Assembly (NCBI GenBank): GCA_036630325.1
Contig: CP142733.1
Span: 186,001-250,000, forward strand
Direction of reading: 5' to 3'
Origin: Vairimorpha necatrix
Taxonomy: Eukaryota
DNA length: 64,000 nucleotides
Shown: in pieces, positions 27,236-64,000 of the stretch
Layout: the number at the start of each line of letters is the position of its first letter
Numbering within the stretch: position 1 is the first letter of the stretch
The notes under the pieces: generated by a model
Seen by the model: only the letters and a program-made list of their open reading frames with translations
Told to the model about the DNA's origin: nothing
Databases searched by the model: none
Position numbers and translations under genes: made by a program

Positions 27236-29071
27236 GTGATATTTGTCGTAAACTTTCTTTTTTTAAGGATTAATAAATTTTCATGATTTTAAAAAAAAAT
27301 TTAAGGCAGACTAACGGACAATATTAGCACCGAAAAAGTTTATGTTTTTAAGTTAAAATCTCTTTGTAAGTGTGTTTTCTTAAATTCCATATCGTAAATT
27401 TAGCCTTTAAATTGTTTCCTTGCTGATCAGACAATAATAGTTTAAAAATGACGGACACGGCCGTTGCATACAATAAAAATAAGATAAACTTTTATTCACT
27501 AAACCCTTTTCTTTCTAATAAAATTATCGCATTCTGATATATCCACGATCTTACTTCTTTTGGACGTTAAAACACAATAGCATCACAAAAAAATCGACAA
27601 TATTGTATCTAACAATCATGAATTTATGAATTGAATCATCTTTTTTTTTATGGTTTATGTGTTATCAATAAAGCTATTTGTTACTTGAAGTTCTTTAACC
27701 AAATAGGATTTATTTTTTTATTTATAATGAAAATTATTATATCTCAAAAACGAACTCCATTCCAATACTCTTAATTTTTTATGAATATGCTTGATACAAG
27801 ATAAGCTTTCATTGGGATGTAATTCAATTATTTATTCTGTATTTCTCTTTATATAAAATTAATACTTTTTCTTTCAAGGCCGAAAAAATATCCATGATAC
27901 ACAATAAACCAAAATTTTCGTATATGTATTTAGTACAAAAATAAAAGTTTTATAATAAATCCAAATTTTTTTACCTACTAATTTTTCTCTACTTTATGTT
28001 CATACCATATAGACATAATTGTATTACGTAAATTATTTCACGTCATAAATTTTTTTGTATTACGTTTTTTTTTTAGCATTTCCGTCTTTTTATACAAAAA
28101 TTATCTCGTGCTTTCTCTTTTTTGTTTCTTATTGTATACACAAAACAAAATTTTACAGCTAGAACTAAATCTAAACCTATTAAATTGGAACATAATATGC
28201 TTAATATTATATCTTTTATGTTAAAAATTTCTAAATATGTTTTTTGCCAAAAAAAATTTATAATTTACAGTTTATTTCTCTCATAACCCCGTAGAATATT
28301 TGATTGATTCATAAAATCGGTGTTGTGCTTAAAACACATTTTTTCTATAAAAAGTGAAATTTGAATATAATTATTTATTTTATAACTGGAAGCACAAAAG
28401 CTATGCATATAATTTAACTAATTCGGTCAAATATAACAAGAAAAAAAATTATTAATACACTTCAAACATTTGCATGTGAAATGAAATAAAAGACATTGTT
28501 TTTCAACTTTAAAATAATAATTCATTAATTTGTTTTTAATGAAATCCTAGCTAATATAACATCCTATTAAAAATTTTCAATATAAAATTATTTTTATCTG
28601 TGTTTGTCAATTTAAAGATAAAAAGTATTCATTATGGTATAAAAGAGTTTTTTATATATTTAGAATTAAATATAACTTTATTTTTAATTTAGATACTAGA
28701 GTGCAAGAAAATTTTTTTTACAAGTACTTTTATTTATATGTGTATTCTTTATTTTTAGTTCTCGTCAATAAATAACAGTGTATTTCAATCTTTCATAATA
28801 TTCTTTTATAAACCCTACTATTAACTTATTTGTTTAATTTATAGTTTAATTCAATATGGAGAAAAGATAGGCGGATTTAACACTATGAAATCTATTCAAT
28901 TTTCATAAATTACGTAGAGAAAAAAATTGAAAAATCATTTTTAACGTGGGATAATAAGAAGCTCTTGTTAGATTATAAAGTTCGATTGAGGGAAGCGAAA
29001 TTCGGGTTTTTTTACTTTCTGTGAAGAGCAGCTTATAAAACAACAGAGAATGATTTACATGATGCAAGAGA

Positions 29072-30156
29072 AGATATTGAGAAGGAGAAGACGTAAATCA
29101 ACGATAAGGTTTGAGGGGAGCCAGATCGAAGAATTATAGAGTTTGTAGTGGCGAATATAATGGGATTAAGGCAAGAAAAGGTATTGAGAATGAGAGTGCT
29201 TAAATAGACGATAAGGTTTGAGGGGGACCAGATCGAAGAAATTAAGACTTGTTAGTAGCAAGCTTATTAGAGACGACGAGAAAGAGAAGGTAATCTGAAG
29301 GAGAAGACTTTAATCGACGATAAGGTTTGAGGGGAACCAGATCGGCGAAATATGACTTGTTAGTAGCGAGTTTTATGAACATTAAGAGACAGAGAAGGTA
29401 TTGAGAAGGAGAGTGCTTAAATAGACGATAAGGTTTGAGGGGAACCAAATCGGCGAAATATGACTTGTTAGTAGCGAGTTTTATGAACATTAAGAGACAG
29501 AGAAGGTATTGAGAATGAGAAGACATAAATCGACGATAAGGCTTGAGGGGGAAACCAAATCGAAGAAATTAATACTTGTTATCAGCAAGCTTATTAGAGA
29601 CGACGAGAAAGAGAAAGTATTGGGAAGGAGAAGACATAAATCGACGATAGGGTTTGAGGGGAACCAAATCGAAGAAACATGACTAGTTAGTGGCGAGTTT
29701 TATGAACATTAAGAGAAAGAGAAGATATTTGAATGAGAAGACTTAAATCGACGATAAGGTTTGAGGGGGGGAACAAATCGAAGAAAACAAGACTTGTTAG
29801 TAGCAAGCTTATTAGAGACGACGAGAAAGAGAAGATAGTAATAATGAGAAGACTTAAATCGACGATAAGGTTCTGAGAAAAAACCAGATCAAAAGAATAT
29901 GGCTTGTTAGTGGCGAGTACAGTGAACTTAAGGTAGAGAAGATATTTGAATGAAGAGACTTAATTCGATAATATTGTTTGAGGGGGAATCATGTTGAAGA
30001 ATTATCAAATTGTATGTGGCGAGCTTATTGAACATTGAAAGAAAGAGAAGGTATTGAGAAGGAGAAGACTTAATTCGATAATAACGTTTGAGGGGGAACC
30101 ATGTCGAAGAATTATAAACTTGTTAGTAGCGAGCTTATTAGAGACGACGAATGAGA
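29072..30156. repeat. ~108-bp tandem repeat block, about 10 copies (unit 3)
   Basis: Almost identical to the unit 2 block. Confidence 0.92.
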
Positions 30157-30703
30157 GCAAATTGTTCTTGCTTAAGATCGAAGTTTCTACTTAAGAACTG
30201 AATGCTATTTAGTCTAAGAATGAAAACTCATTTGTAGTATCCTTATCGAAACCAAAACAAGAGAAATTTTCTGCACACAGAAAAAAAAGAATGAGGTTAT
30301 TTGTTCGAACTTCAAGAAAAAATTAAAGATATGGCAGCTTCTTAAAGAAACTCCTATCTGCGATGTAGTGATTTGATCTGAAGAGATAATACACATAATG
30401 TGCAGAGAAGGCCTTTTGAGAATAAGAGTCGAGAGGTAAGTAACTATTAAAGCTGACGATGCTTAGAAGAAAATCCTGTGTGACTTGGCGCGATACGACT
30501 TAAATTTTTGAATTCACTTTTGTCGTACCTCCTGCGGAAGTACAACTCCAATAAAGATAAGTTTTGAGTAAATAGTTTATTTCTCTTATCTTCCATACCC
30601 CTAAGTATGGAATTTTCTTTTATAGTTTTTTTTTGTTTGTTTACAGGGTAAACAAATCAAGAAATGTCAAAAATGATATGTTTGACATGTGGGATACCAC
30701 ATC

Positions 30704-31501
30704 CTACCCTCTTCTTTTAATGTCCTTTATGTGGATCCAAATGCCTCCTTCTTCTACTTTAACCCAGTTTCCTTTCTTCCCAACCTCTTTGATCGTACAG
30801 GGTCCTTTATATTGTTCATCCATTTTCCCAGCTTTGAAATCTCTTACAAATACTTTATCATTTATTTTTAATTTTTTATCGTTATTCTGGTTCAGTGTGG
30901 CTGGAACTGATTTGTATTTTGGTTCCTTTAGGTTGCTTTGTCGTCTGAATGGGTCAAAAAAGCTGTATTGTTTCTCTAATTCGAATGGAGAGCATCCAAT
31001 AGTTCTTTTGTAATTTACGTTAAGTTTAATGTTAATTTTATTTGTTATGTCGTTGATGTTATTTAGCTTGTTTATCCTTAGACATTCAGCTATTATACTG
31101 TTTTGCCTTTCTGCCATTCCGTTGCTTTGCGGATGGTATATTGGAGTGTTAACGAGTTTAATTCCTCTACTTTTCTCATATTTTTCTCTGAGTTTTTCTC
31201 CGGTAAATTGTGTGCCATTGTCCATGATAATTTTTTCTGGCTGTTGAAATTCTTGTATCCATTTATCTATACATTTTATTATTGTATCTTCCGTTATGTT
31301 ATATAGAAGGTATACCCTTGAAATTCTTGAGTAAACGTCTGTTATGCAAAGGTAATAAGCCTTATAATGGATTGTATCATGTTCAAAATTTTCAAGTTCA
31401 AATGGTCCAAATATGTCCATGGCTATTGTTCCGTAAATTTTATCAGATTCGATCTGTAATTTCTGAGTTTTGACTTTCTCTTTCTTATTTAAGTTACACA
31501 T
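30704..31501 (-). CDS. Integrase core, out of frame with the upstream polyprotein
   Basis: MDIFGPF, MDNGTQF, HPQSNGMAERQN and YKGPC motifs. Confidence 0.9.
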   Translation of the reverse strand: MCNLNKKEKVKTQKLQIESDKIYGTIAMDIFGPFELENFEHDTIHYKAYYLCITDVYSRISRVYLLYNITEDTIIKCIDKWIQEFQQPEKIIMDNGTQFTGEKLREKYEKSRGIKLVNTPIYHPQSNGMAERQNSIIAECLRINKLNNINDITNKINIKLNVNYKRTIGCSPFELEKQYSFFDPFRRQSNLKEPKYKSVPATLNQNNDKKLKINDKVFVRDFKAGKMDEQYKGPCTIKEVGKKGNWVKVEEGGIWIHIKDIKRRG

Positions 31502-34500
31502 TCTGCAATTTTTGTTATTGCTATTATTTTGTTCTTTAATCCAATTATGTTGTAGAAAGGAGAGAGATTCTTGTTTAATACTACGATTCCTGGGTGGCCG
31601 GCTAGTTCATGTATTTTTGTTAGAAAATTTTCTGCTTCGGTGTTTTTGATCATTATTTTGTCATCTTTATTTCTTTCCCAGTTTTCCTTTCCGGATTTAT
31701 CGTCTGATATTTTTTCTACATATTGTTCTATTATATTCGTAAGGTTATTTCCATGTCTGACATTTTCTATTTTAAAACATCTTGATAGGTAGTCAGCTAC
31801 TGAGTTATTCTCTCCTGCGATTTGTTTTATGCAGTAATTGTGCTCTATCATCATCGCGTCCCATCTTTCTATTCTTCTGCTTATTTTGCTTTTAAATAGA
31901 CAATTCCTGTTATCTGTATAGATTTCGACGTAATTTCCGAGTACTATGTTTCTGCACTTATCCATCGCGTATACTATTGCAAAGTATTCTTTTTCCACTA
32001 TTGTATAATTTCTTTCAGTTTTATTAAATTTCATGCTTATATTTAAAATTATTCCGTGTTCTTGTGATAGTACTGCGCCCATTCCTAGTTCAGAGGCGTC
32101 GCAATGTAGTGTAAATTTTTTACTGTAGTCTGGCAGTACTAGATGGCTATTGTTCTTTAGTGTACTTACTAATTTGTTTATTATTAGATTGTCTTCTTTT
32201 GTTAGCTTGACTTTTTTTTCGTTTCCTTTTAGCTTTTCAGTTAAGCTTAGAATTTCTAGACTTAAGTTTGGAATGTATTTTCTGTACCAATTAAATATGC
32301 CAATTATTTTTTGCAGGTCTTTTTTAGTGTGGCATTTCATGTTTTCTGTTAGTTTACAGTCTTTCGTGAGAGGGTACATTTTTCCGTTAAAAATTCTTGT
32401 TCCTAGGATTTCGGTGTCCTTTGTGCAAAACTCTGATTTTGCGAAATTTACATTTACATTGTAATGTTTCAATCTTGTGAACAGTTCTTTAAGCGTATTG
32501 AGGTGTGATTCGTAGTCCTTTGTGGCAATTATTATGTCGTCTATATATACTGAAATGTTATTTATCCCGAAAAGTATTTTGTTCATGATTTTCTGAAAAG
32601 CTTTTGGTCCATTTTTTAATCCAAAAGGAAGTCTTTTGTACCTGAATGTTTTACCAAATATCGAAAATGCTGTCCATTTTCTGCTATCTTTTGCTAGGAG
32701 TAATTGATTAAACCCGTTTGTCAAGTCTAATTTGCTTATTACTTCGCTTTTACCAAGTTGATAAATAATATCGTCCATTTTGGGTATTATTTCCACTTCA
32801 TCTTCAACAAAGTTATTTATTTCTCTATAGTCTACTATTAATCTCATTTTCCCATTTTTCTTTTTCTTAAAAAATGCGGGACTTGTGTATCTTTCATTAC
32901 ATTCTTCTATTATGTCAGCGGTTATAGGTCGTTGTATTTCGGCTATTGCATCTTCTTTAAAGTTTGATGGTACGGCATAGTTAATTTTCTTACATTTTAT
33001 GTCGTTGTTTGAAACTTGTAATTTAACGTGATCTGTGTTTATAGGACAATTTTCTTTGATTTCTCTTTTATAATTATCTATAATTTCCCTAAGTCTTTCT
33101 TCTTCCTTAGTGATAAGTATTTTTCCTGGGGGTTTTTCGAATTCTGTTTCTTCTGCATTTGTTTTCATATTTACGGTTGCGTTGTTCCAGATTATTTTCT
33201 TTCTTGTAAAATCTAATATAATATCGTTTCTCGATATGAAATCTCTACCAAGTATAATATTGACTGGTAGGTTTTTTAATAAGTAAAATTCAATCTTGCA
33301 TGTCTCGTTTTGATCCTTTAATTTTAAGTCGAGTTCTATTGTAGTGTTAGTTTTTTCACTAGATTTATTACCGAACATTACCTGGATCTCTTTGTTTTCT
33401 CTAGTGGTGATGTTCCATTGTTCTACGAGGTCTGCTTTTATAAAGTTTAATCCTGCTCCGCAGTCTATAGTTCCTGTTGACTCATGTTTTGTGTTGATTA
33501 TGAGTGGGATATCGAGTTGTTCGACAATGTTAGGATTTTCTAAAATAACATAGTTTAAAGAGTTTTTATTTTCCCTGGGCTCTGAAGTCTTTCTCGTTGT
33601 ATTTTTTAAATTTTGATTGGTATCGGGAACTACTGTCTTTTTGTAGTTGTTGAATTTTTCGTGTTTTACTTTGCTCATATTCGATCGATTTGTTTCATTG
33701 CTTTGCCCGCAGTCTCTCGTTGTATGTCCCAAAGTTTTGTGGACTTTACACCATTTTTTCATGAATCTTATACCTGAGGTGTTATTTAGCTTTCTCGGTA
33801 TGTTAAATCTTGTTATTATGTTTTCTTCAATTCTTTTTAGGGCTGGTATGATTTCGGGTAGTGTTTCGAAGTTTTGTTCCTCGAGATATCTTACTGTTTC
33901 TAAGCCTAGTCCTCTGTATAGAGATTCCTTTGATCTTCGTTCGTATTCTTTCATGCTACAGTTGGATACTTTACTGTAAATAGTTAATCGATTCATGATT
34001 TCGTTTACATAGTCGTCGAAGAAGATGTGGTCAGTCTGTTTGAGATTACTCAGTTCTGCTATTAAGTTCTCGACCCTTTTCTGTGAAAATACTTTGGACA
34101 TGATGTATTTTTTGTTCTCTTCATAATCATCTTTCAATTTGGTTTTATCTATAATCTGATCTTCTATAAGATCGTATAAAAAGAGCCTTTTAGTTTCTTC
34201 ATTCCATTGGTTCCTTTGGAAAATTTCTTCGATCTTTTTGAACCATCCTAGTAGATCGATTTCGAATATGTCGTTGATCAGTTCTACATTCTTAGTGATT
34301 CCTAGATCCACTTCACCTGTCTTAATTCTTATGGTGACTACTTTTGTTTCTTGAATTTTGGAGTTGTGCCCTGCGATTTCTCTTCCTCGCGTGGGTGGGA
34401 GTTCATTATATTTGTACTCTCTTATTGAATTCAATATGTCGTACCTCCTGCGGAAGTACAACTCCAATAAAGATAAGTTTTGAGTAAATAGTTTATTTCT

Positions 34501-34512
34501 CTTATCTTCCAT
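31489..34512 (-). CDS. Gag-protease-RT-RNase H polyprotein (ends inside the integrase zinc finger)
   Basis: WCKVHKTLGHTTRDC knuckle, IDCGA protease, LPFGL and YIDD RT motifs, CDAS...VADYLSR RNase H, HELAGH. Confidence 0.93.
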   Translation of the reverse strand: MEDKRNKLFTQNLSLLELYFRRRYDILNSIREYKYNELPPTRGREIAGHNSKIQETKVVTIRIKTGEVDLGITKNVELINDIFEIDLLGWFKKIEEIFQRNQWNEETKRLFLYDLIEDQIIDKTKLKDDYEENKKYIMSKVFSQKRVENLIAELSNLKQTDHIFFDDYVNEIMNRLTIYSKVSNCSMKEYERRSKESLYRGLGLETVRYLEEQNFETLPEIIPALKRIEENIITRFNIPRKLNNTSGIRFMKKWCKVHKTLGHTTRDCGQSNETNRSNMSKVKHEKFNNYKKTVVPDTNQNLKNTTRKTSEPRENKNSLNYVILENPNIVEQLDIPLIINTKHESTGTIDCGAGLNFIKADLVEQWNITTRENKEIQVMFGNKSSEKTNTTIELDLKLKDQNETCKIEFYLLKNLPVNIILGRDFISRNDIILDFTRKKIIWNNATVNMKTNAEETEFEKPPGKILITKEEERLREIIDNYKREIKENCPINTDHVKLQVSNNDIKCKKINYAVPSNFKEDAIAEIQRPITADIIEECNERYTSPAFFKKKKNGKMRLIVDYREINNFVEDEVEIIPKMDDIIYQLGKSEVISKLDLTNGFNQLLLAKDSRKWTAFSIFGKTFRYKRLPFGLKNGPKAFQKIMNKILFGINNISVYIDDIIIATKDYESHLNTLKELFTRLKHYNVNVNFAKSEFCTKDTEILGTRIFNGKMYPLTKDCKLTENMKCHTKKDLQKIIGIFNWYRKYIPNLSLEILSLTEKLKGNEKKVKLTKEDNLIINKLVSTLKNNSHLVLPDYSKKFTLHCDASELGMGAVLSQEHGIILNISMKFNKTERNYTIVEKEYFAIVYAMDKCRNIVLGNYVEIYTDNRNCLFKSKISRRIERWDAMMIEHNYCIKQIAGENNSVADYLSRCFKIENVRHGNNLTNIIEQYVEKISDDKSGKENWERNKDDKIMIKNTEAENFLTKIHELAGHPGIVVLNKNLSPFYNIIGLKNKIIAITKIAECVT

Positions 34513-35259
34513 ACCCCTAAGTATGGAATTTTCTTTTATAGTTTTTTTTTGTTTGTTTACAGGGTAAACAAATCAAGAAATGTCAAAAATGATATGTTTG
34601 ACATGTGGGATACCACAACTTTAAAGTAAAATTTTTGTGAAGAGTTAACGATCTATATAATTGTCTTGAGACTCTAAACGAGCATTGATACCTAAAAATA
34701 TAAATTGACTAGAAATCCTGGGAAAATATTTAGATTATACCTTAAAAAATGTCTTTTTAACTAGTCAGTTATTGAATAAACACTGCTGTTATTTTGTTTG
34801 TTCGGCGGATCGTGTAAACATATAATATGTTTTTTCATCTTGCTTTGTATTAAAAATATTTCATCTGATAAGGTAAACATAAATAATAAAGTTCTTGTAA
34901 AATAAATCTGACGATCACAAACTTCACTTTTAATTGAATAGTAGTACGAAAGGAACATCATATTGTTGATTTGTATATTTTTTATGGTGTGTTTTGTAAT
35001 AAATTTTTTTATATCTAACCATAAAAAAATAATAACCCAGACCCAACCCATATTTATGCATTATTTTTTTTTCTATTTATAGTTTTAAAATTCATGGAAC
35101 GTTCTAAAACCAACAAAATTCTTTTTGACGTAAAAAATAAACATAAACAATTTTTGCTAATAAATGTTAATACATATTTTGATCGTATATAAAGTAAAAT
35201 TTCTGTACACATTTTACAAGACAACAACACAAATAAACAATGCATTGTTTACAGAAAGA

Positions 35260-37829: not shown

Positions 37830-38501
37830 ATGTTGCAATCAAGCTATGTGTTTTCTGATGTTTTAAACTTCTGGAGAAACAAAGAAGCACTACAGTGTAA
37901 CAAGACAAATCTAATTATAGACAATTATTCAGATGACGTGAGGGCGTCGTCTGATGATAAAATTGTCGATTTGCCTACAGAAAAGGTTGTATTCAGCCAT
38001 TCTTCAGTTGACGTGGGGGCGTCGACTGAAGAAGAAAGTGTTGAAGAGAATCAAGAAGACTTGGTGGAAAATGTAGATATTAAGAATGAGGAGGCGAAGG
38101 AGAATAGTGAAAGCACAGAAGATTTGGGGGAGGAGGGCCATATTGAAGAAGGGGAAATGGGGGAGGACCCTATAAGTTTAGGAGAGGGTCTAGAGGAGTT
38201 TGAGGGGAGTGATGGCATATTTATGCCAAAAATCTTCTTCAAAGAGAGAGATGTCGAGGGGAACGAGAAAATAATTAAAAGCGAAGAACTGACAGAAGAA
38301 GATTTGAAGAGAATAGGTGATCAAATTTCCGATCTCTATTCTCTCCATCTTCTGGAAGTGGGCTTTAAAAGGATGAGGGAGGCGGAGGAGAACTATAATA
38401 AGTCATGGAGAGGGAGAATATATAATGCAATAGGAAGACATTTCTGTTGTTTTGTGGAAAATGACGAAGATTCCGAAGACATGGAGGACGAGTTCGATTA
38501 A
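37830..38501 (+). CDS. Acidic orphan protein, array copy 4 (223 aa)
   Basis: Intact ORF, ATG after CCCCCA. Confidence 0.85.
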   Translation: MLQSSYVFSDVLNFWRNKEALQCNKTNLIIDNYSDDVRASSDDKIVDLPTEKVVFSHSSVDVGASTEEESVEENQEDLVENVDIKNEEAKENSESTEDLGEEGHIEEGEMGEDPISLGEGLEEFEGSDGIFMPKIFFKERDVEGNEKIIKSEELTEEDLKRIGDQISDLYSLHLLEVGFKRMREAEENYNKSWRGRIYNAIGRHFCCFVENDEDSEDMEDEFD

Positions 38502-49970: not shown

Positions 49971-50588
49971 ATGTTGCAAAGAAGTTATGTATTTTCTGAT
50001 ATTCTAGACTTCTGGAAAAACAAAGAAGCACATACATGCAGCAAAACAAATACTAGTATCGGCGATTACTCAGATAACGTGAGGGCGTCATCTGATATTA
50101 AGAGTATAGATTACCAAAAAGAAAATATCATCATCAACAATTATTCATGTGACGTGAGGGCGTTGCCTGGTAACTATGTTGAGAATGATATGGAAGCATT
50201 TAAAGAATATGCTGTGATAGAGAAAGAAGGAGGGAAAGATTTGAGGGGGAACTTAGAAGATGGGGCAAAAGGGGAAATAATTTTAACGGAGATAGAATTA
50301 TTTGAGGAAAAAGCCATAGGCACAGGAAAATGTAGTGAGGAAGAGAGTAAAACTACAACAAGTTTTAACATACAAGAAATATCTGAAGAGGAATGGGAAA
50401 AAATAGGGGTTAAAATATGTAAACTCTATGCATTCCATCGTCTAGAAATAAGCTTTGAAAGGACGAGGGAAGCAGAAGAAAAATATAGACGGTCGTGGAG
50501 GGGGATGTTTTACAATTTTTATGGAAAGCATTTCTGTTGCTCTTCAGAGGACTATGAGGATTCTGAAGAAGAATATGAATATCAATAA
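49971..50588 (+). CDS. Diverged paralogue of the acidic orphan protein (205 aa)
   Basis: Shares MLQxSYVFSDxLxFWxNKEA, YSDxVRASSD and REAEExYxxSWRG...HFCC. ATG after CCCCA. Upstream ~250 bp and the 3' flank are also alignable. Confidence 0.88.
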   Translation: MLQRSYVFSDILDFWKNKEAHTCSKTNTSIGDYSDNVRASSDIKSIDYQKENIIINNYSCDVRALPGNYVENDMEAFKEYAVIEKEGGKDLRGNLEDGAKGEIILTEIELFEEKAIGTGKCSEEESKTTTSFNIQEISEEEWEKIGVKICKLYAFHRLEISFERTREAEEKYRRSWRGMFYNFYGKHFCCSSEDYEDSEEEYEYQ

Positions 50589-52708: not shown

Positions 52709-55431
52709 CAGAGGTGGGCAAATACTTTAAGGCTGTGGGCCAAAATGAATTTTTTAAAATGTCTCCCGGGCCGGAGTACTATTTCGGCTTTGCTTTACAC
52801 AAGCAAAAATTTTGGATGAAGTTTTTTTCCCTGCCCATTTTTTACAAAAATATTAAGTATCATTTCAATTAGAATAAAATATGTCAAGTACATTTTAAGG
52901 AAATATTATTATAAATAAATGGCTATTAGATAAACCACACAATAAAAGGTTTTATTTTGTTACTTAATTATGTCTTAACGATATTAATTATTTTATTTTA
53001 CACAAGTTATTACAATTTAACATTTATATTGCATCTCTAAATATAATAGTAAAAAAATTCAAAAAAGAAAAAAAAACATCAAACGTTAAAATAAATATTT
53101 AATGTTAATGCGAAACGTGAAATGTCGAATATTCATCCGACATTATTTCTTTAAAATTAGGTTCTAAATCACTTGTGGCAATCCTTAATACCGAGCGTAG
53201 ATTTTCGTCAGTAATTTGTAATCGATAGTTATTTTTCGTGTAAACCATTAAAGAAAAGGTTCTTTCACAAATATAAGTCGAACCAAATAAAACAAGATAT
53301 TTCTGAGCATAGTTCAAAAAATGTTTGAAATGTTCATTATTTAACGCGCCATAGAAAGCACTCAATTCGTTTGAGTGAAAATTTTCTTTTAGTAAATTAT
53401 TTGATTGTAAGTCAATTAGTTCTAGTTGAATTTCAACAGGAGCTTCTTGCACGTGAAATTGAAAGGATGGCTAATTAATGATAAAGGGTTTTCAATATCT
53501 TTGAAATCTTGAAATTTTCTTTGGAATTCAGCATGCAGGTCTTGTGTTATTGCACTATATTTAAAAAAATCTGTATTTTTTAATGATTCTCGCCTTGCTT
53601 GCAATAAGGGGAAATGATTTATTAATTTATTATTACAGTTTTCAGCAAATAAATTGAGTTTTGTCATATATGCTTTGACGTTTGAGTGCATATTGAAGGC
53701 GAATTGGTTTTTACCTTGTATATTTATATTTAGTTCATTCAAATATTTTACTATATCTACTAAAAACGAGAAATCGTTTAGCCAAGCCTCATTTTGCAAT
53801 ATAGGAAAATCTTGTAGTTTTTCTTTTATCGACAAGAATGATACTATTTCATCAAGCAAATATTGGAATCTATGTAAAACTTTACCAATGCTAAGCCATC
53901 TCACTTCAGTGTAATAGGGAATTTCGTAGTAGTCACTTTCAATTTCTTATAAAAATTCAAGAAACTGTCGATGATTTAAGGCACGTCCTCGGATAAAATT
54001 TACAACTTTGGTCACAACAGTAACGACGTGATTCAATTTCAAACTTTTCTGCATAGCATTTCTTGGTGAATAATGCAGTGCAAAAATAATATATAGTGTT
54101 CTGGTTGTAACTTTTTTACTTTGTCGCGTATTCGTTTAAGTAAGCCTATATTTTTCCCTGTTAAACTAGGACAGCCATCCGTAGTGACGCTTACTATTTT
54201 ATTCCAAGTTAAACTAACTTTAACTAAACACTCTTCAACAGCGAGAAAAAAGTCTTTACCAGTAGTTGTATTTTTCATTGGATGCACACTAAGAAGTTCC
54301 TCGCTAATTTCACATTTCCTATTAATGCCGCGAATAAATATTTATAATTGACTTGTATCAGTAATATCGCAGGGCTCATCTAAAGCCAGAGAACAATAGG
54401 TAAAATCAGCAATTTTTCTGCTTAGCTGGTCAAGTAAGTTTCCTGAAATATTTTCAATCCGACGTACTATCCTTCTTCAAGAAAGGCTTAGATTTTCAAA
54501 AATATGTTTCTTTTCAGGACAACATATCTCCGACACTTGTACCATGCATTGTTTAACAAATTCTGCTTCTTAAAACGGTTTAAGAACTTAGCAATTTTGT
54601 GTGCGACAGCATAACTTGCTTTTGTAGTAGATTTTACAATATTAATTCGTTTGGAAAAAAAAATTTGTTGCTGATTCAAGTTTTTTGTTAAGTTTTCAGT
54701 TATGTTTTGAAGTTCTTGTAAAGAAAGTGATGCATATTTTGGATGTTTTGTTGTAAAATGCCTGCTTAAATTGTATTCTTTGAAAACAGCAATTGTTTCC
54801 TGACAAACTAAACAAATTGCTTTCTTATTAATGTTTGTAAAAAGATATTTTACCGTCCAAGCTTCATTGAAGTTTCTGCATTCCAAATCAACTTTTCTTT
54901 TTTTAGTTTCTCTCATTTTAAAAGGGCTACAAAAAAAATAAATAAGTAAAAACAATAAAAAAAACGCCAAAGTTTTAAAAATTTACTTACAAAAAGTCCA
55001 CTTTTTCAATTTTATATATGCAAACCAATGGTAGATTCGAACTAAAAAAGAGTATGCGATCAGAATAAAATAATAATTAACAATACCTGGGCTGCGATCT
55101 GTCGTCCCCCAAATATTGAGAGGCTGAGAGGAGTGCAGCATATGTCGTCCACACATGCATTTTAAACCTAGCGCGATCTACTTTGTGTTCGATGAAACCC
55201 CCGCCATGAGAGCGATTGTCGAGAGTGACCCGCATCGTTCACACTAGTGTAATAAGCCAAACGCTTATTTTATTTCCCCTATTATATATACAGTCCGCAT
55301 ACTAATAATGTTTATGTCAACAAAATCTCATAAAGAGTTTTAAAAAAATTGCGTTAGAATTTTTCAGCGGGCCGGATAAAATTAGCAAAAGGGCCGGATC
55401 CGGCCCGCGGGCCGGCTTTTGCCCACCTCTG
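52709..55431 (-). mobile_element. hAT DNA transposon (SPIN/Charlie/GTF2IRD2-like)
   Basis: 14-bp TIR CAGAGGTGGGCAAA and perfect 8-bp TSD ATTTACTG. Inserted in the AIDYYSKW integrase motif of the old Gypsy. Confidence 0.95.
53105..54916 (-). pseudogene. Frameshifted hAT transposase
   Basis: KKRKVD...AICLVC...YNLSRHF (BED-like), VTTDGCPS, HCIIHQE, RWLS and FGSTYICERTFS motifs spread over four ORFs. Confidence 0.92.
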
Positions 55432-58400
55432 ATTTACTGTAATAGTCGATTGCTACTAAAATGAAATGATTAGTGCCATTATATGGGATTCGTTTTATCG
55501 AATCAACTTCCCAAAGTTTATTATGATTACTAGCTTCAATTGTCCTGTGTTTTGTATTTCTAAATTTATTTCCGTAATTTCAACAATTAATGCATTCGGA
55601 AACCAACTTTTCATAGTCTTTATATATGTCTTCTCAGAATTATTTTCCTCCGTTTGCGTTTTCATGTTGTTAATAGATCCATCCCAGTTTCTATATGATA
55701 GGCTTTAATATCTTCTCTTTTTCTTCTTTTATAAAGTCTTTAATGATACTTTAAATTCTTATTTCCTTGCTAAATATTCAACTATAGCCGTCCGCAATGG
55801 TATCTTCACCCTTTATGCATTCAACGTCAAATTTATATTCTTGTAACATCATTGACCATATTAGAATCTGACTTGTGGGGGGGGGGTTTGATTCCCATAA
55901 GTACGTTGGTGCTTTATGGTCAGTTTTTAACGTAAATTCATTCCCCAAAAGATAATGCCTATAGTCATTTATACCTTTAATAACAGCCATAAGTTCTTTA
56001 TCTGTAACTGAGTAATTTATTTGACAATCGTCGAATCTTTTACTACATAAAGAGATGGCTTCTTCTACAAATTATCGTCAGCTTGTGCAAGAACTGCACC
56101 TATTCCAATTTCAGACGCGCCTGTGATTAAGATAAATTTTTTCTAAAAGTCTGGTTGTTTTAATTCATCTCGCCGCTAAGAGCTTGCTTTAACTTGGAAA
56201 GCTTAATCTGTAAATCTTCTGACCAGTGTACTCTTTTTAGCAATTTTTCGTTTATCCCTTAAAAAGACTGAAGAATGGTCCTGTTAACTTGGCATAAGAT
56301 TCTACGTATTCGGGCAGTAATTCATTAACCCCAAGAATAACCGTAAGGTTTTGGGGCTCTATGGAAAGGGGTATTTTTGAAACGTATCAATCTTAGTGAG
56401 ATCGGTTTTTAAGTATCTCCTTGAAACAAATTCACTCGTATTTTAATTTCGTCTCTAAAAAATGTGAAATTTGATTTTTAGTACTATTCCTGTTTCTTTT
56501 AATTCCTTTAACACAATGAAAAGATGTTTCCCATGTTCTTTTTCGTTTTTTGAGAAGATGATTAAATCGTGAGATCGAAATAACAAAATCATTACATGAA
56601 TTTCCGATAAGTCTATCCATAGCTCTTTGAAAAGTAGCGGGAGCATTACATAATCCAAGAGGCATTCTGTAATATTCATATAGCCCGCTCTTTCGTAAAA
56701 ACGTTGTTTTCTTATTATCTGATTCATTCAAGCCTATCTGTTAGTATCCAGATGTTGCATCTAAGGTCGAAAATGTTCATGGCCCAGTTAGACTGTTTAG
56801 TATTTCATCAATTCGGGGTAACGGGTATTTATCTCTTATTGTTATTTTATCAGAGTTCGGAAGTCAATGCATAATCTTAACGATTTATCAGGCTTTTGAA
56901 CCGGGATGAATCTTGAACACTATAGGATATTAGATTTATTAAAACATCCAATTGTTGGTTCTTTCGAATGTCTTCAGTAATTTCTTGTTCATCATGTATC
57001 GGGATTCGATAGTTTTCCTAGTTTATAGGAGGATGGTCTCCTGTGTCAATAAAATGCGATGTTGCACCATAATCGGATTAGGTGCGATGGTTTCTCCAAA
57101 GCATCCGGAAAATTTAGTATTTATTTCGTTCTCTTTGGGACATATTTGTAAAGTGATTGGTTGGTTTATATTCTCGCTTTTACAAATAGTATCAGACCTA
57201 AATTATTTTTCTGTAAGGTCTGTTTCGATTTTCGTTTTAATCTTCTGCGTTGATGGAATATAATTTATTTTTGTTGGGGGAAGTTTCGGATAATTTTTTG
57301 TACCAAGCGTATGTATTTATTATTAACATCAGTTCCGAGAATAGAATAGTCAGGTAGCATTTTACATACAAACGGGTAGAATATAATTTCTTTATCGCAT
57401 ACTCTTAATCTGAGGTCCTTGATTTTACACATGATATTGATAAAAGAGCCCGAAGCCGATCTAATTTTAACGCTTGTTGTTGTTATTTTATTTTTATCAA
57501 ATATCTGGTTTATGTTTATCAAAGAGATGTCTGCACCTGTATCAAGTAGTGTCAAGTGAGGAGCTGCCTTTGAAAGGGTGGAATATATAAAGAAAGGGTT
57601 TCTTTTATAAGCGGATTAGAAATGTAAACGTTGAAGTCTTTGTTTTCTTGGTCAATGTTGCTATCGACTTTATTTATTTCTTCTGCCGCATTTGCCGACT
57701 TTCTTTCTTCCATCTTTTTTCTTCCAATTGCTTAACTATGCAGCAATCATCTGTTATGTGGATCCCATGCTTGAATAATGCAGAACAATTTTTTCCTGCG
57801 GGAACTCCGAGGCACTCTTTCTCTTTTCTGATATAATGTCTTAGTTCCAGTAGAGGATAACCTATTATTGATTCTTTCGGGAAATCCACCCAGGCCACCT
57901 CCTCCGCTTGTTGGACAAAGTTATTCCAGTTTGAAGCGATGCATGAATATTGATACGGCAATGTGTTAAGTTCTCGCGGGGACTTAGAAATAGTCATCCT
58001 TATTAGTAATTTAAGTGCAATGCAGTCTCTTTCAAATAAATCGGCGACATCTTCTAGTAGTTCTGAATAGTTTCATATTTATTCACCGATTTAATTGCTA
58101 AAAATGACCAAAAATCTCATCTGTATTCGTTTGGTTGCCGAACCGTTTTTTCAAACTTATTATTAAACTTCCTAAGGTAATATTAGCAATGTTCCCATTG
58201 GCCAACGATATCAAATACGCCTGGGCAATTCCTGTCAGTTTATTCATGATTAACCCTAAAATATTGTTCTCTAAAAATCCTGCAGTTTGGGCCAAGATTT
58301 TCACCTTTTTTAACCACATCTCAATGTCTTCGTCTCTATCTCCATTATATTCACAATTGCTTTCGTCACTGTCGTTATGTCAATATAAAAAAAATATTAG

Positions 58401-59440
58401 TTTTTCATCTCTTCCTTCCATCTTGCTTGGGGGTAAAATTCAAAAGTTTAAAATATTAAGAAGTGTCAAACTTATAAAACATGTAGCACCCCCTAGGCCC
58501 ATACGACACTTAGTAATTATAAAACAAGTTCGAAAACCATACAAAGAATTTTGTTTTTTTAGAAAATGTCTTTACTTTCAAAATATATCGTTTATGGGCG
58601 CGAAAATAAATTCGGTTAAAAATAGGGCGTGGGGAACTCCAGGCTGGAACCGATTCGGGGGGGGGGGGTGTTACTTTGAGTTTTAATAAAAAATGCCCTA
58701 CAATTTTTTTCCTTTTATACACAATTAAAGAGTTAGACCATTTGGTAAAAAAATTATGCAAGCGCAACCGATATCTGCCTGTTTTATAAGTCATCGTTAA
58801 AAGAATAAAAGACGTATTGAGGTGTTATGCAAATCTGATAGAAATGTAAGAAGTAGATATTTGATATGAATTGGATGTTTAAAAGAATACAAGATTCTTT
58901 GCGAGTATTTACGAAATATTTGGTAGCCAGTATTGCAGTTATTTTTGTTGATACAAACACAATTGAAAGATTATTGATCAGCAGTAAAACGACAAACACA
59001 GCAAAAATATATCGAACCCCAAAGTTCGGCTGTTAATAGTACGCTAATTATTGTTAAATAAGACATCTGACTAACTACTTAAGATGTTATATAACATTTT
59101 ACCTTGCATTTTTCTTGTTGGTCGGATTTCTAAAAAATATTTTTTTAAAAATTAAATTTACTCCCAAAAATACTTCCAACGAGGATTTTAACTGACAGAA
59201 CAAACCATAAAATATATTGTTGAGCCATAAGATATATAAATTTCTTACGATTGTTTAGAGTGGGAGTATTAATGTAAGAATATAAATATAATGCGAGTAA
59301 TTGTATTCTTGGATATTTTTCGAATATGGTTAGGTTTTATCGATATAAAATGATACATAGACCAACTGAAAAACTTGTCATAAAATGAAGAAGAAACTAA
59401 AAAATAATTTTTAAATAAAATATAACTTCGGTAATATCTT

Positions 59441-62400
59441 TGTCGAATGTTCCTTTATTTACGAATTGCATGGGGGTGAAAATATATAATATTTATAGAA
59501 GGATACGACACCTCTCCCCCCTAAATTGAAGTATCTGCTTTAACTCGTGTTTTGTTAAGCCTGTATACTTTTCCATTCTTTTTTACCACATAGGCATCGG
59601 GTAAAATTATTTCTGTGATCACGTATCCATCTTCCCAATTGCACTTGAACTTCCCGCTTTTGGTCTCACGATATATTAAAACTTTATCGCCCACGTTTAG
59701 CTTTTTCGCCACCTCTACTTTCCCTTTCACGATTGCTTTTTTGTACTTTTCGAAGTTTTCATCGCGCTTACTCTTCGTTTCCTCCGCTGAGAATGTCACT
59801 TCTTCCTTGTCTAGCGCTTTGTCTACAGACAGCATCGGCAATTTATTCTCCCTTAACATGAACGGCGATGTTCCTATGCTCCGATTATAAGACAGGTTGA
59901 GGCATCTCGTGGCTTCTGGGAGCTTGTTCTTCCAGCTTACCCTTCCGAAATCTGTAATTTTATTTAGTATCTTCATTAACGTCTGATTCGCTCTTTCTAC
60001 TGCGCCTACAGTTTCGTGATGTTCTGGTGAACTGTATTGCCAGTCAATACCGTTCTTTTCGGCCAGGTCTTTGATGTCAGAATTTATAAATTCTAGCCCG
60101 TTGTCAGTCAAGATTCTTTCTGGAATGCCGTGTTTCTCGATAATCAATTGCTGGATTAATCCCATTATTTTCGACCCTGTTTTATAGTTAATAACAGCCG
60201 TCTCGACCCATTTAGAGTAGTGGTCAATAGCAATGAATATGAAGCTGTTTTGACTCGAAGTGTCGCATATGCGTCCTATGAGATCTATAACCCATATTTG
60301 GTTCGGCCTCTCTGATCGTATAACTTTGTTTTTTGTGTTTCGTAATGGGTATCCCGATTTCAAGCACGTTTTACACTTTTCTACGTGTTCCTTGATGTCC
60401 TTATGCATTCCTGCCCATTTGTACCTTTGTGAAATCATGAAGCTCATCGTACTAGCGCTAGCATGTCCAACGTCTAGATGGTAGGATTCTAAGATCTTCT
60501 GTCTGTCTTCATCGCTTGGTCCTGTAGCTTCGATGATATTTATATCTTTCTCTGTCGGGTTTTGTCTGCTTAACCCGTCTGCTCCATTAACCTCTCCTTT
60601 TATGTAGGTTGATTGAAATGCATACTCCTGCAACTTCATTGCCCACCTCAGCAATCTACTGGTAGGGTTCTTAGCTTCCCATAGATAAGTCAGCGCTTTG
60701 TGGTCCGTCTTCAATATGAACTCTCTACCCAGGAGGTAGTGTCTATAGTTCTCGATGCCTTTTACAACGGCCAAGAGTTCTTTGTCTGTTGTAGAGTAGT
60801 TCTTATGGGCTTTCTCTAAACTTTTGCTGAATGCACTTACGAAGTGCTCCTTCCCATCATCTCCAATCTGTGAGAGGATCGCGCCTATTCCCTGCTCTGA
60901 CGCATCCGTAGTCAGTATAAACGGTTTCCTGAGATTAATCTTGTATCTTATTGTCTCTTCTGTGAGAAGTCTCTTTAGATCTTCGAATGCCCGTTTCTCC
61001 TTTTTGCTGAGAGAAATACTCTTAACACTTCGCTTTGACTCTCCTTTAAACAGTTCGTAGAGAGGGGCTGCTATCGCTGATAAGTTACGGATGAACTCCC
61101 TACAGTAATTTATGAGCCCAAGAAACGACCGTAGTTGAGCAATATTAGTCGGCTCCTTATACTCGTTTATGGCTTTGACCTTCTCTGGGTCCGGTTTGGT
61201 CGTCTTGTTTGTTACTATATTCCCTAGAATTTTAATTTCTTCTTTGAAGAAGTGGCACTTCTTCCTGTTAAGTGCGATTCCTGCTGCCTTAAGCTTACCC
61301 AATACGATTTCCAAGTGTTCATGGTGTTCCTGGTGATTTTTAGAATAGATAATAATGTCATCCAAGTATGGTATGACGAATTTTCTGTTTTCTTTCACAA
61401 AAATCTTATCCATAGTTCTCTGAAAAGTAGCAGGGGCATTACATAGCCCAAACGGCATCCTGTTAAATTCATAATGTCCTCCTCTCCAGCTGAATGCTGT
61501 CTTCTCCTTGTCTACTTCTTCAAGGGCTATCTGATAATATCCCGACGTAGCATCTAATGTCGAAAAGATAGTAGCGTCAGCTAGATCGTCGAGAATTTCA
61601 TCAATTCGTGGGAGGGGGTATTTATCTTTGACTGTTATCTTGTTGAGCTCTCTGTAATCTATACAGAGCCTGATCGACCCATCAGGTTTCGTTACCGGAA
61701 CAACTCTACTGTTCCAGGGGCTCCTACTATTTCTTATTACGCCCAACTGCAAGTTCTTCTTGATCTGTTGTGTGATTTCCTCTTCAAAGTGCAGAGGGAT
61801 CTTTCCATTTTTCTGGTAAATTGCCTTCGCTACTGTTGTCTCGATTTGATGTTTCCCCATGTTACAAAGTGTAAGCTCTGAAATTTCAGTTTTGAACATT
61901 TCATGGTATTTCTCTTCGATTGAGATGTAATTGACTTTGTTAATCAGTGAGCCTTTCTTGACTGTATTGGCGAATTTTCTGATCAGTTGTTCCAGTAATA
62001 TGGGGTTCGTTCGTATAGCGTCAACACCTAAGATTATGTAGTCCGGTGTCCGTTCTGTGACGTAAGGGCTGAAAGTAATTGAAGTGTTTTCCGTCCTAAA
62101 ATTGATATTTAGACATCTTCCTGTAATCTCCAATGGTGTCCCTGATGCTGCTCGTATGATCGTTGAAGATCTGGTAAATCTGATATTTGTCCCTTCGAGG
62201 ACTCTTGCGGGTATCAGGGAGACATCAGCTCCGGTATCAATTAATGCTCGATGTCGTTTACAATTGAATTCTACGTTTATGTAGCAAGGGTTAGTGAAAC
62301 AGCTGTTGATCTTGTAGTTTTCTATGGTGTAGGGTATATTTCCCTTCTTCGATGGTGCGACCTTCAAAGTCCTGTTATCTAGTGTCTCGTCCGTATTAGT

Positions 62401-62985
62401 CGTGTTACTTTTCATAGGGAATGCTATCCAAGAAACTTCCTCTGTGCGCCTCAGGAATTCACTCCAATCTTGGCATTGTCTAGCAAAATCATAAAGAATT
62501 GATTTGAGGACTGAAGGAGACTTCTTGATTACTATGAGGCTGACTGCTTTGTACTCCATTGTTTGTTGCTCTATAAGTGAGTTTCCTTTCCTGCAGAAGT
62601 CTATGAAAGCCTCTAGGATGCCAAATTGTTGCGGTTTAACAAACTCGTCTAGAGTGGCCAGAGTTTTCTGTGAACTGTAAAATCTCAATTTTAGACTCTT
62701 AGTAACCTCTGCCAGATCAAGTTCTGACACCCGTTCAAATCCCATTGCTATCCATGAGAGAGCTGGCCCCCGTAGACCCAGGCAGATAAGTCTGGCGGTC
62801 TGATCTTCTGTCAGTCCCATAACCCTCGCCGTGAACGTTGTGTCACGCAACCATGTATTTATATCCTCTTCCTTCTTTCCACTGAAGCAGCCAACAGTTT
62901 TTATCGCTGTCGCCATGTCGAATGTTCCTTTATTTACGAATTGCATGGGGGTGAAAATATATAATATTTATAGAAGGATACGACA
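59441..62985 (-). mobile_element. Intact minimal Ty3/Gypsy LTR retrotransposon, 3545 bp, 70-bp LTRs
   Basis: Identical LTRs 59441-59510 and 62916-62985 (TGTCG...CGACA), TSD ATCTT. PBS TGGCGACAGCG follows the 5' LTR directly and PPT AGGGGGGAGAGG precedes the 3' LTR. Confidence 0.97.
59521..62946 (-). CDS. Single Gag-Pol polyprotein (Gag, protease, RT, RNase H, integrase), 1141 aa
   Basis: IDTGAD protease, MPFGLCNAPATFQ and YLDD RT, TDAS...ADGLSR RNase H, HLDVGH...CKTC and D,D(35)E (IDL, TDNG, VERAN) integrase. Uninterrupted. Confidence 0.96.
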   Translation of the reverse strand: MQFVNKGTFDMATAIKTVGCFSGKKEEDINTWLRDTTFTARVMGLTEDQTARLICLGLRGPALSWIAMGFERVSELDLAEVTKSLKLRFYSSQKTLATLDEFVKPQQFGILEAFIDFCRKGNSLIEQQTMEYKAVSLIVIKKSPSVLKSILYDFARQCQDWSEFLRRTEEVSWIAFPMKSNTTNTDETLDNRTLKVAPSKKGNIPYTIENYKINSCFTNPCYINVEFNCKRHRALIDTGADVSLIPARVLEGTNIRFTRSSTIIRAASGTPLEITGRCLNINFRTENTSITFSPYVTERTPDYIILGVDAIRTNPILLEQLIRKFANTVKKGSLINKVNYISIEEKYHEMFKTEISELTLCNMGKHQIETTVAKAIYQKNGKIPLHFEEEITQQIKKNLQLGVIRNSRSPWNSRVVPVTKPDGSIRLCIDYRELNKITVKDKYPLPRIDEILDDLADATIFSTLDATSGYYQIALEEVDKEKTAFSWRGGHYEFNRMPFGLCNAPATFQRTMDKIFVKENRKFVIPYLDDIIIYSKNHQEHHEHLEIVLGKLKAAGIALNRKKCHFFKEEIKILGNIVTNKTTKPDPEKVKAINEYKEPTNIAQLRSFLGLINYCREFIRNLSAIAAPLYELFKGESKRSVKSISLSKKEKRAFEDLKRLLTEETIRYKINLRKPFILTTDASEQGIGAILSQIGDDGKEHFVSAFSKSLEKAHKNYSTTDKELLAVVKGIENYRHYLLGREFILKTDHKALTYLWEAKNPTSRLLRWAMKLQEYAFQSTYIKGEVNGADGLSRQNPTEKDINIIEATGPSDEDRQKILESYHLDVGHASASTMSFMISQRYKWAGMHKDIKEHVEKCKTCLKSGYPLRNTKNKVIRSERPNQIWVIDLIGRICDTSSQNSFIFIAIDHYSKWVETAVINYKTGSKIMGLIQQLIIEKHGIPERILTDNGLEFINSDIKDLAEKNGIDWQYSSPEHHETVGAVERANQTLMKILNKITDFGRVSWKNKLPEATRCLNLSYNRSIGTSPFMLRENKLPMLSVDKALDKEEVTFSAEETKSKRDENFEKYKKAIVKGKVEVAKKLNVGDKVLIYRETKSGKFKCNWEDGYVITEIILPDAYVVKKNGKVYRLNKTRVKADTSI

Positions 62986-63764
62986 ATCTTATTCATTGTT
63001 GTTGGGAATATATATTTGGGATAATTGCCCCCGGCTTATAATTATCTTTAAAATGGTTAAGAATAAAATATTATTGACCTTAGACAAAAAAGACGAATGT
63101 TGTTAGTTCAGTCAAGCCATATGACGTAAAAATTACAGTATATGTTAGAATGAGGATGGCTGCTTGTCTTATTCAGAGAGGAGAAGGCTTCCATCAGTCG
63201 AGGGACCATATAGGTGAAGACGTATAGAAGCTGCAAAGAGCTGCAAAGAAACAGTATTGAACGTAATAAGTTCTGGTATAAGACATGTACAGATGTAGTG
63301 TAGTGGTACATTCCACAATTCACATTTAAGTTATCTTGGTAAGATAGCTGAATTTCCAGTGTTAAAAATCCCGAGAGACTTAAGAAGAGAGTAAAATAAA
63401 AAAAAACTGTGTTATAGTTGAAGAATAAGAAAAGCGGATAAAATCCGGCTCCGTTGTTGGGAAGACATGTATAAAGAAAAATCCTATGCCCAAAGACTTT
63501 ATGTATTAAAATAGGGGAATAAAATACCGTAAAGACAACTACAAGAAAACATAGTAGGACGCGAAAGAGTAGAGCGCAGCCCATGGTCAGTTAACATAAT
63601 AATGCACTAAGTTTCGAGAAGCAGGTAGTAGGCGTAGGAAGTTGTAAAGATAATTACATCATTTAGTTCTAAATTTAGCGCGGGATGTTCAGAATATATA
63701 TTTAATAAATTTACCCTTAACTTACAATTATCTTAAACAGTACTAAAAAAATAAAATTTTTATA

Positions 63765-64000
63765 AAAAAAATGTTAGACTTTAATTTCTACTAGAAAAAT
63801 AAAAGGTTATATAGTTATGATCTTAAAAAATTAAAAAAACCAGAAACTAATCTTTAAGTTGCATTTTTATTTTGTTATATGTATAATATAATAAAAAACA
63901 AAAGAATCGTATTCAGATTACAACATACATCAAATCAACAGTCTTGAAGTAATATCACGAGTGGATTTTTTAAAGTGTCAAAGACATTATAAGACGTTTT
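63765..64000 (+). repeat. Diverged copy of the array's upstream non-coding segment
   Basis: Aligns by eye with ~12375-12610 (AAAATGTTAGA...TATAGTTATGAT...AGAAACTAAT...AACAGTCTTGAAGTAA...ATAAGACG). Confidence 0.7.

Follow-up and report, generated by a model that had tools for sequence, protein, structure and literature searches.

A 3.5-kb Ty3/Gypsy retrotransposon with 70-bp terminal repeats and a single reading frame in the microsporidian Vairimorpha necatrix

We analysed a 64,000-nt stretch of the Vairimorpha necatrix genome (assembly GCA_036630325.1, contig CP142733.1, positions 186,001 to 250,000, forward strand; hereafter the window, whose own numbering is used throughout). On its minus strand, at 59441–62985, the window carries a 3545-bp element whose ends are two 70-nt direct repeats, identical at 70 of 70 positions. 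We consider it likely that this is an intact, structurally autonomous Ty3/Gypsy long terminal repeat (LTR) retrotransposon of the microsporidian single-polyprotein lineage, compacted almost to the limit; its autonomy we infer from the sequence. A preliminary description of the same DNA had proposed a 3545-bp Gypsy element with 70-bp LTRs, miniaturised and matching the compact transcription signals of its host. Both proposals held: besides the identical repeats we found the expected protein domains and a target-site duplication, and the signals in the LTR fit those published for V. necatrix and microsporidia.

Structure of the element

The 70-nt LTRs have the termini TGTCG...CGACA. The window held no third copy of the repeat, even with up to three mismatches allowed, and none of 100 shuffled sequences (0/100) gave two matches. 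When the flanks were compared, no similarity outside the repeats was detected on either side, and both flanks carry a 5-bp target-site duplication, ATCTT, which the preliminary description had not mentioned. A single minus-strand open reading frame (ORF; 59521–62946) is stop-free across 1141 codons and takes up 96.6% of the element. As had been noticed before, it starts in the 5′ LTR and its stop codon overlaps the polypurine tract: the ATG occupies sense positions 40–42 of the LTR, and the TAG (59521–59523) overlaps the purine run AGGGGGGAGAGG, whose end directly adjoins the 3′ LTR, leaving only 10 non-coding bases against 3395 coding ones among the 3405 internal bases. The LTR signals recognised at first reading (TATAAA, CCC, start codon and AATAAA within 70 bp) are likewise all present, in the sense order TATAAA, CCCCC, ATG, AATAAA. 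A sequence of primer-binding-site form, TGGCGACAGCG, begins at the first base past the 5′ LTR and lies within the ORF. The final A of the LTR and the TG that opens the primer site make up a second in-frame ATG at codon 11, and the primer site doubles as codons 11–14, Met-Ala-Thr-Ala. The G+C content of the element is 41%, compared with 30% for the window. The features are as follows (amino acid positions, aa, refer to the ORF product).

59436–59440, no strand: target-site duplication ATCTT, left copy, identical to 62986–62990
59441–59510, minus: 3′ LTR, 70 bp, sense TGTCGTATCC...TTCGACA; 70/70 identical to 62916–62985, adjoined by the polypurine tract
59511–59522, minus: polypurine tract AGGGGGGAGAGG, overlapping the stop codon TAG at 59521–59523; seen in the sequence, with the same arrangement in the sister element L001 (below)
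59521–62946, minus: single Gag-Pol ORF, 1141 aa; ORF call, Pfam domains and invariant catalytic residues
60022–60513, minus: integrase, with H2C2 zinc domain (aa 812–864; Pfam Integrase_H2C2, E 5.5e-13) and DDE core (aa 879–975; rve, E 1.5e-13)
60622–61008, minus: RNase H, aa 647–775; Pfam RT_RNaseH, E 3.9e-36, and RT_RNaseH_2, E 9e-30
61219–61692, minus: reverse transcriptase, aa 419–576, with YLDD; Pfam RVT_1, E 3.4e-38
62008–62280, minus: aspartic protease, aa 223–313, with DTGAD; Pfam gag-asp_proteas, E 6.3e-7, and RVP, E 1.1e-5
62413–62916, minus: capsid (CA) of Gag, aa 11–178, two helical lobes; structure model, profile matches and structural alignment with VIA
62899–62915, minus: putative primer-binding site TGGCGACAGCG(ATAAAA), translated (M)ATAIK; adjoins the LTR, 17 nt identical in the related element L002 (below)
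62916–62985, minus: 5′ LTR, 70 bp, 70/70 identical to 59441–59510
Within the 5′ LTR, in plus coordinates: TATAAA 62967–62972, CCCCC 62947–62951, ATG 62944–62946, AATAAA 62929–62934 (Asn-Lys in frame)
62986–62990, no strand: target-site duplication ATCTT, right copy, identical to 59436–59440

Features typical of Metaviridae are found together: TG...CA repeats, a 5-bp duplication, a primer site and a polypurine tract beside the LTRs and, by Pfam, the Pol order protease, reverse transcriptase (RT), RNase H and integrase, the last following RT. The catalytic set is intact (DTGAD, YLDD, D681, HHCC and D888/D948/E984), and in an alignment with 19 relatives the residues D237, D529/D530, D681, H823, H828, C858, C861, D888, D948 and E984 were invariant. 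A search for Rfam families in 57000–64000 returned none.

Related elements of similar or smaller size

The sister of the window element, here called L001, was found on a 4011-bp contig filed under a bacterial metagenome-assembled genome (MAG), and its protein is 64% identical to that of the window. The L001 element measures 3590 bp, with identical 75-bp LTRs and an intact ORF of 1153 aa that starts at an ATG preceded by CCC within the LTR. Its primer site TGGCGACGGCG adjoins the LTR, and its stop codon lies in TAGGAGGAGAGG, directly followed by the TGTCG of the 3′ LTR. Because L001 keeps 75-bp LTRs, a Gag without a zinc knuckle and an intact ORF, the small form appears to be maintained rather than to reflect a recent deletion. 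Judged by this common layout, the window element is not a deletion derivative.

A more distant relative, L002 (50% protein identity), is an element of ∼3974 bp with LTRs of ∼190 bp, whose ORF ends at a TAG inside the 3′ LTR. Its 17-nt primer-site stretch is identical to that of the window element. Such identity at this level of protein divergence, third codon positions included, points to constraint at the nucleotide level, presumably for primer binding. Smaller than the window element is L169 (L169:229–3592, G001:C261), at 3364 bp with identical 58-bp LTRs. It belongs to a different lineage (35% identity over Pol) and uses another primer site, TGGTGGAGAAC. Its ORF of 1088 aa starts at the junction ATG, to which the LTR contributes its last base and the primer site its TG, and the stop codon lies within the 3′ LTR; Pfam recognised RT, RNase H and integrase, and reading the Gag translation by eye revealed no knuckle match. 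The relatives of L169 (1071–1112 aa) lie on contigs of 3408–3471 bp, and the named ones are microsporidian.

Compactness is a general trait of microsporidian Gypsy elements, and the window element is not the smallest of them. Many of the relatives among the matches listed encode 1130–1230 aa on contigs of ∼3.6–3.9 kb, sizes that by themselves would leave little room for long LTRs. The named best matches, again among those listed, came from V. necatrix, Nosema granulosis, Pancytospora, Enteropsectra, Pseudoloma and Nematocida. A Pol-region tree placed the window element within the microsporidian proteins, and the element shows the single frame for Gag and Pol. One further candidate, L003, was set aside, having no terminal repeats and beginning inside the integrase. 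The matches from metagenome and viral scans, mostly non-microsporidian Gypsy elements at 29–44% identity, were left unused.

The microsporidian-type Gypsy contigs in public bacterial MAGs (L001, L002 and L161–L187) carry Clostridium, Aeromonas, Leadbetterella and Bacteroidales labels, and their ORFs are named as bacterial reverse transcriptases. One MAG, G001, contained 37 matches to the window polyprotein. These contigs look like eukaryotic contamination of the bins.

A complete capsid without a zinc knuckle

The Gag region had been described as small, at about 200 aa, and as lacking a visible zinc knuckle. The second point stands; as to the first, the capsid is complete and only the nucleocapsid is absent. 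Taken alone, the first 222 aa gave no significant Pfam match (PNMA, E 0.043). Among 17 Gag members, Pfam matched Retrotrans_gag in 11, PNMA in nine and Ty3_capsid in four, and a profile of the 17 Gag regions matched solved structures, namely the dArc1 capsid (E 9.4e-7) and PNMA2 (E 3.7e-4). An AlphaFold (AF2) model built on the same alignment had a mean predicted local distance difference test score (pLDDT) of 80 and showed the two-lobed capsid fold, with ten helices at residues 11–174 and a disordered stretch at 182–219, so placed that aa 179–222 form a disordered linker. With this model, the best Foldseek matches were retroelement capsids, all of them weak (PNMA2, E 9.8e-3), and VIA-align returned dArc1 with Z 9.9 over 158 aa and the Ty3 capsid (6r24_B) with Z 7.9 over 148 aa. 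As Z values of this size are middling for helical proteins, we rested capsid homology on the sequence-profile match. As modelled, Gag is a complete two-lobed capsid of normal size, and the part that is missing is the nucleocapsid.

A knuckle of the form C-x2-[CH]-x3-5-H-x4-C was found ahead of the protease in neither the window element nor L001. Across 20 relatives, a CxxHx4-5Hx4C (CHHC) knuckle lies between capsid and protease in 16, being absent from the window element, L001 and two divergent members. Among the 18 Gag regions with complete N-termini, that of the window element is the shortest, at 222 aa up to the protease against 229–297 aa for the rest. In the Pol-region tree (a quick IQ-TREE run under LG+G4, with support from the Shimodaira–Hasegawa-like approximate likelihood ratio test, SH-aLRT), the window element and L001 formed a pair with a support of 100 within a clade supported at 97, the seven other members of which bear the knuckle. 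This suggests that the loss is derived and took place in the ancestor common to the pair, a direction that rests on nesting among the microsporidian rows, since Gag is cut or missing in four of the five outgroup proteins.

Copies in Vairimorpha necatrix

The window protein represents a 90%-identity cluster of 10 members on six contigs, the other nine of which are named Vairimorpha necatrix. Three members have 1141 aa and are 99% identical, four have 1104–1123 aa and three are fragments (360–413 aa). The six other long members are 97–99% identical to the window copy, and three proteins from two neighbouring V. necatrix clusters are 94% identical to it. We aligned these three with the long members of the cluster, giving 10 proteins. 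None had a longer Gag, three were exactly 1141 aa, and nine of the 10 shared the LTR-encoded start MQFVNKG(T/A)FDMATAIK, the tenth being without its N-terminus. At the other end of the element, the frame-shifted copy P0124 ends in ...FRGERCRILL, which corresponds to the translated polypurine tract (FRGERC) followed by the first 18 nt of the LTR. In the public V. necatrix proteome, the ORFs of the family are annotated as 'endonuclease' or 'RNA-directed DNA polymerase'.

Contigs from four public sequencing runs were compared with the window. No joint spanning the element, as an empty site would give, appeared among them, a result that speaks neither for nor against mobility. In run X1, depth was 10.7–15.5 over the element and 3–3.7 over its flanks, and one contig, on leaving the LTR at 62985, continues into a flank other than that of the window copy; together with the spread over six contigs, this points to independent insertions. 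In run X2, a variant (62925 T>C) corresponds to the T8A change of copy P0129. The preliminary description had concluded from identical LTRs and an intact ORF that the element was recently active. The ORF is intact. The LTR identity is by itself weak evidence of youth, because by simple arithmetic about half of all 70-nt pairs would still be identical at 1% divergence. The three 1141-aa copies at 99% identity are the better evidence for recent amplification.

Two further observations from the runs are recorded here. A 1320-nt contig of run X1 joins 62915 to 59441, with a single LTR between 5′ and 3′ internal sequence; the joint may come from a one-LTR circle, from two tandem elements with an LTR in common or from a de Bruijn-graph artefact of a multi-copy element, and we do not count it as evidence. 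Next to the element, at 63058–63500, depth in run X2 reached thousands, compared with 0–180 for the neighbouring sequence; no Rfam family matched there, and the segment may be a high-copy repeat of the organism sequenced in that run.

Host-like signals and a proposed replication scheme

The window element, L001 and L002 have LTRs with a common motif order: an A/T-rich TATA-like stretch, CCC, ATGCAA, an in-frame AATAAA, and a terminal ...ACA followed by TGGCGAC. One L002 LTR has GGG in place of CCC, and the AATAAA is read as Asn-Lys in all four LTRs compared. An open leader of 7–17 aa before a conserved MA(T/S) was present in 11 of the 18 relatives with complete N-termini; its sequence varies, and M11 and A12 were invariant across the 17 Gag sequences.

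A study of Encephalitozoon cuniculi reports 5′ untranslated regions of <7 nt and an AAUAAA poly(A) signal with loose recognition; for microsporidia it describes an A/T-rich stretch and then, immediately ahead of the start codon, a motif that is CCC-like or in rare cases GGG-like (PMC2803860). For V. necatrix itself, another paper finds that 77% of the genes with functionally characterized products have a CCC or GGG motif in the 30 bp upstream of them (PMC10759460). As read from its sequence, the signal layout of the 70-bp LTR fits these published gene signals.

On the strength of this match in motif order, the LTR would act like the control region of a microsporidian gene. The TATA-like stretch and the CCC would place transcription initiation a few bases ahead of the ATG, at a guess near LTR position 33–39, and U3 would then be shorter than ∼40 nt, the division into U3, R and U5 likewise being a guess. 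The AATAAA at LTR position 52–57 would be kept in the Asn-Lys frame, thereby avoiding a TAA stop, and in the 3′ LTR it would direct cleavage at or just past the LTR end (a guessed poly(A) site), such that R and U5 would total only ∼30–35 nt. A host tRNA with a 3′ end of ...CGCUGUCGCCA would prime the minus strand on TGGCGACAGCG, a sequence that occurs once in the window and may resemble the 3′ end of yeast tRNA-Ser. The stop-bearing purine run would prime the plus strand, and RNA packaging would have to rely on something other than a zinc knuckle.

Autonomy and alternative explanations

Several observations weigh against an autonomous, compacted element. Having no nucleocapsid and no basic tract, it may need a helper. 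The primer tRNA was not found: ARAGORN detected no tRNA in the window, and two patterns for a matching tRNA gene gave no match in two genomes that carry relatives (G001 and G002). Direct observation of the full 70-nt LTR is limited to the window copy and to contigs from runs X1 and X2. No matching target duplication flanks L001 (gactt/agatt) or L169 (aatac/gtttg), which we put down, as an assumption, to chimeric metagenome assembly. Finally, of 38 listed differences between the ORFs of copies, 14 were synonymous and 24 were not, compared with 21% synonymous expected at random; the tally is partial, with 61 further differences outside it and the copies mixed, and the synonymous excess is at most a mild sign of selection.

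It is conceivable, though in our view unlikely, that the element is semi-autonomous, making its own capsid and enzymes and obtaining chaperone and packaging functions in trans from knuckle-bearing Gypsy families. The window Gag has neither a zinc knuckle nor a basic tract between capsid and protease, most relatives (16/20) have kept the CHHC knuckle, and a knuckle-bearing Gypsy element with identical LTRs, element B (30521–34617), lies in the same window. However, the knuckle-less state is common to L001 at 64% amino acid identity and both ORFs are intact, so the design appears to be a long-persistent one, and the Gag of L169, from another lineage, is likewise without a knuckle match. Ty1 and Tf1 also function without a zinc knuckle.

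Still less probable is an element that was recently amplified but is now dead, or one that arose by deletion from a longer element, its copies spread by segmental duplication and not by retrotransposition. The shortened gene models of 1104–1123 aa and the fragments of 360–413 aa in the cluster do indicate that decay is going on. Yet a 5-bp target duplication without mismatch flanks the window copy, copies sit on six contigs with a different flank beyond the LTR in run X1, three 1141-aa ORFs are intact in a genome of ∼28–30% G+C, and the sister L001 is of the same size class. That the 70-nt repeats are merely the conserved core of longer, diverged LTRs, and the real element larger, is very hard to credit: we found no support for it, the repeats end in TG...CA with the primer site and polypurine tract adjoining and the 5-bp duplication directly flanking them, the flanks beyond lack similarity, and L001 has the same boundaries at 75 nt.

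Comparison with known elements

Among well-studied elements, Ty3 of Saccharomyces cerevisiae shares with the window element the domain order, the 5-bp duplication, a tRNA primer site beside the LTR and the capsid fold (6r24_B, Z 7.9). Ty3 is ∼5.4 kb long and has LTRs of 340 bp, two frames linked by a frameshift and a nucleocapsid of the CCHC type, whereas the window element has 3.5 kb, 70-bp LTRs, one frame and no nucleocapsid. Ty3 and Tf1 both fall in the class of ∼5 kb, and an LTR of 77 bp is found in the Bombyx mag element.

Very short LTRs also mark TRIM/SMART elements, which share with the window element the TG..CA ends and the 5-bp duplication (FRetro129 has 85-bp LTRs) but are non-coding and non-autonomous, unlike the window element, which codes for everything within 3545 bp (PMC3281118). 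The smallest LTR retrotransposon reported in that paper is 292 bp long, non-coding, with 85-bp LTRs, and the candidate autonomous SMART partners are 4871–5785 bp with LTRs of 105–117 bp.

Within microsporidia, the closest parallels are Nbr1–Nbr8 of Nosema bombycis, which come, like the window element, from a host of the Nosema/Vairimorpha group and encode one Gag-protease-RT-RNase H-integrase polyprotein (PMC2474625); two other papers also cite the Nbr elements of this species as microsporidian Ty3/gypsy (PMC3614468, PMC2685015). No Nosema bombycis names appeared among the best 120 matches listed for the window protein. The microsporidia-specific Ty3/gypsy groups of Parisot et al. 2014 have a single polyprotein instead of separate gag and pol, as here, and at least one consensus from Anncaliia algerae has an LTR start, TGTCGTA, like the TGTCG of the window LTR (PMC4202319). 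As far as the available portions of these papers go, single-ORF Gypsy elements have been known from microsporidia since Nbr and were generalised in 2014 (PMC2474625, PMC4202319). The same portions of the microsporidian Gypsy literature, the length tables for the Nbr and Anncaliia elements lying outside the comparison, contained no LTR length, LTR start codon, translated primer site, purine-tract stop or nucleocapsid loss. The LTR start codon, the translated primer site, the stop in the purine tract and the loss of the nucleocapsid may be new.

Implications

The window element gives a practical minimum for the contents of an LTR and of a Gag: promoter, start codon and poly(A) signal in 70 nt, or 58 nt in L169, with a repeat for strand transfer of at most ∼30 nt, and a capsid that does without a nucleocapsid. 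Coding and replication overlap in it, the primer site serving as codons, the poly(A) signal lying in frame and the stop codon in the purine tract, and it offers a clear example of a mobile element taking on the unusual gene signals of its host. Common LTR finders have a default minimum of 100 bp and with that setting would miss this class of element. Such ORFs are annotated as host genes ('endonuclease'), and such elements contaminate bacterial MAGs. A self-contained retroelement of 3.5 kb could also seed genetic tools in microsporidia, which are hard to transform.

A broader proposal, which we advance tentatively and hold to have somewhat less than an even chance of being right, is that microsporidia harbour the smallest self-sufficient LTR retrotransposons yet seen (3.36–3.59 kb, LTRs of 58–75 bp). 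These would be currently mobile. In the lineage of the window element, the LTR would have been reduced to a core promoter of host type, the start codon and a poly(A) signal read in frame, with R and U5 of ∼30 nt; the primer site would be translated as Met-Ala-Thr-Ala, the stop would sit in the polypurine tract and the nucleocapsid would have been given up. Missed by standard LTR finders, elements of this size would lie unrecognised as 3.4–3.8-kb contigs in metagenomes and bacterial MAGs.

Other features of the window

Element B (30521–34617, minus strand) is a second Gypsy element, 4097 bp long. Its two LTRs, of 181 bp each, are identical, and its target duplication is AAAGT. It too has an ATG inside the 5′ LTR, an in-frame AATAAA and a stop TAG in the purine tract, and its CHHC knuckle reads CKVHKTLGHTTRDC. 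Its Pol is split in two ORFs (31489–34512 and 30704–31501). A TGG primer site is lacking behind the 5′ LTR, where the palindromic TATTGAATTCAA stands instead. In File S1 of Parisot et al. 2014, an Anncaliia algerae consensus shows the same TTGAATTCAA after the probable end of its LTR (PMC4202319). Adjoining element B, at 29064–30139, are ∼10 units of a ∼108-nt repeat.

At 57674–57997, on the minus strand, an ORF fragment resembles the end of a Gypsy capsid (…QQAEEVAWVDFPKES…) and leads into a degenerate segment reminiscent of a knuckle. Situated 1.4 kb from the 3545-bp element, this fragment has the look of a leftover from another Gypsy family. ORFs at 6008–7722 and 54488–54916 resemble integrase-derived and zinc-finger transposon remnants. 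A dispersed gene family has five copies (570–1244, 13730–14113, 23043–23711, 37830–38501 and 49971–50588) and encodes an acidic protein of ∼205–224 aa that starts with MLQSSYVFSDVLNFWRNKEALQC; one copy is cut to 127 aa and one has diverged. Overall, the window is gene-poor and rich in mobile-element debris.

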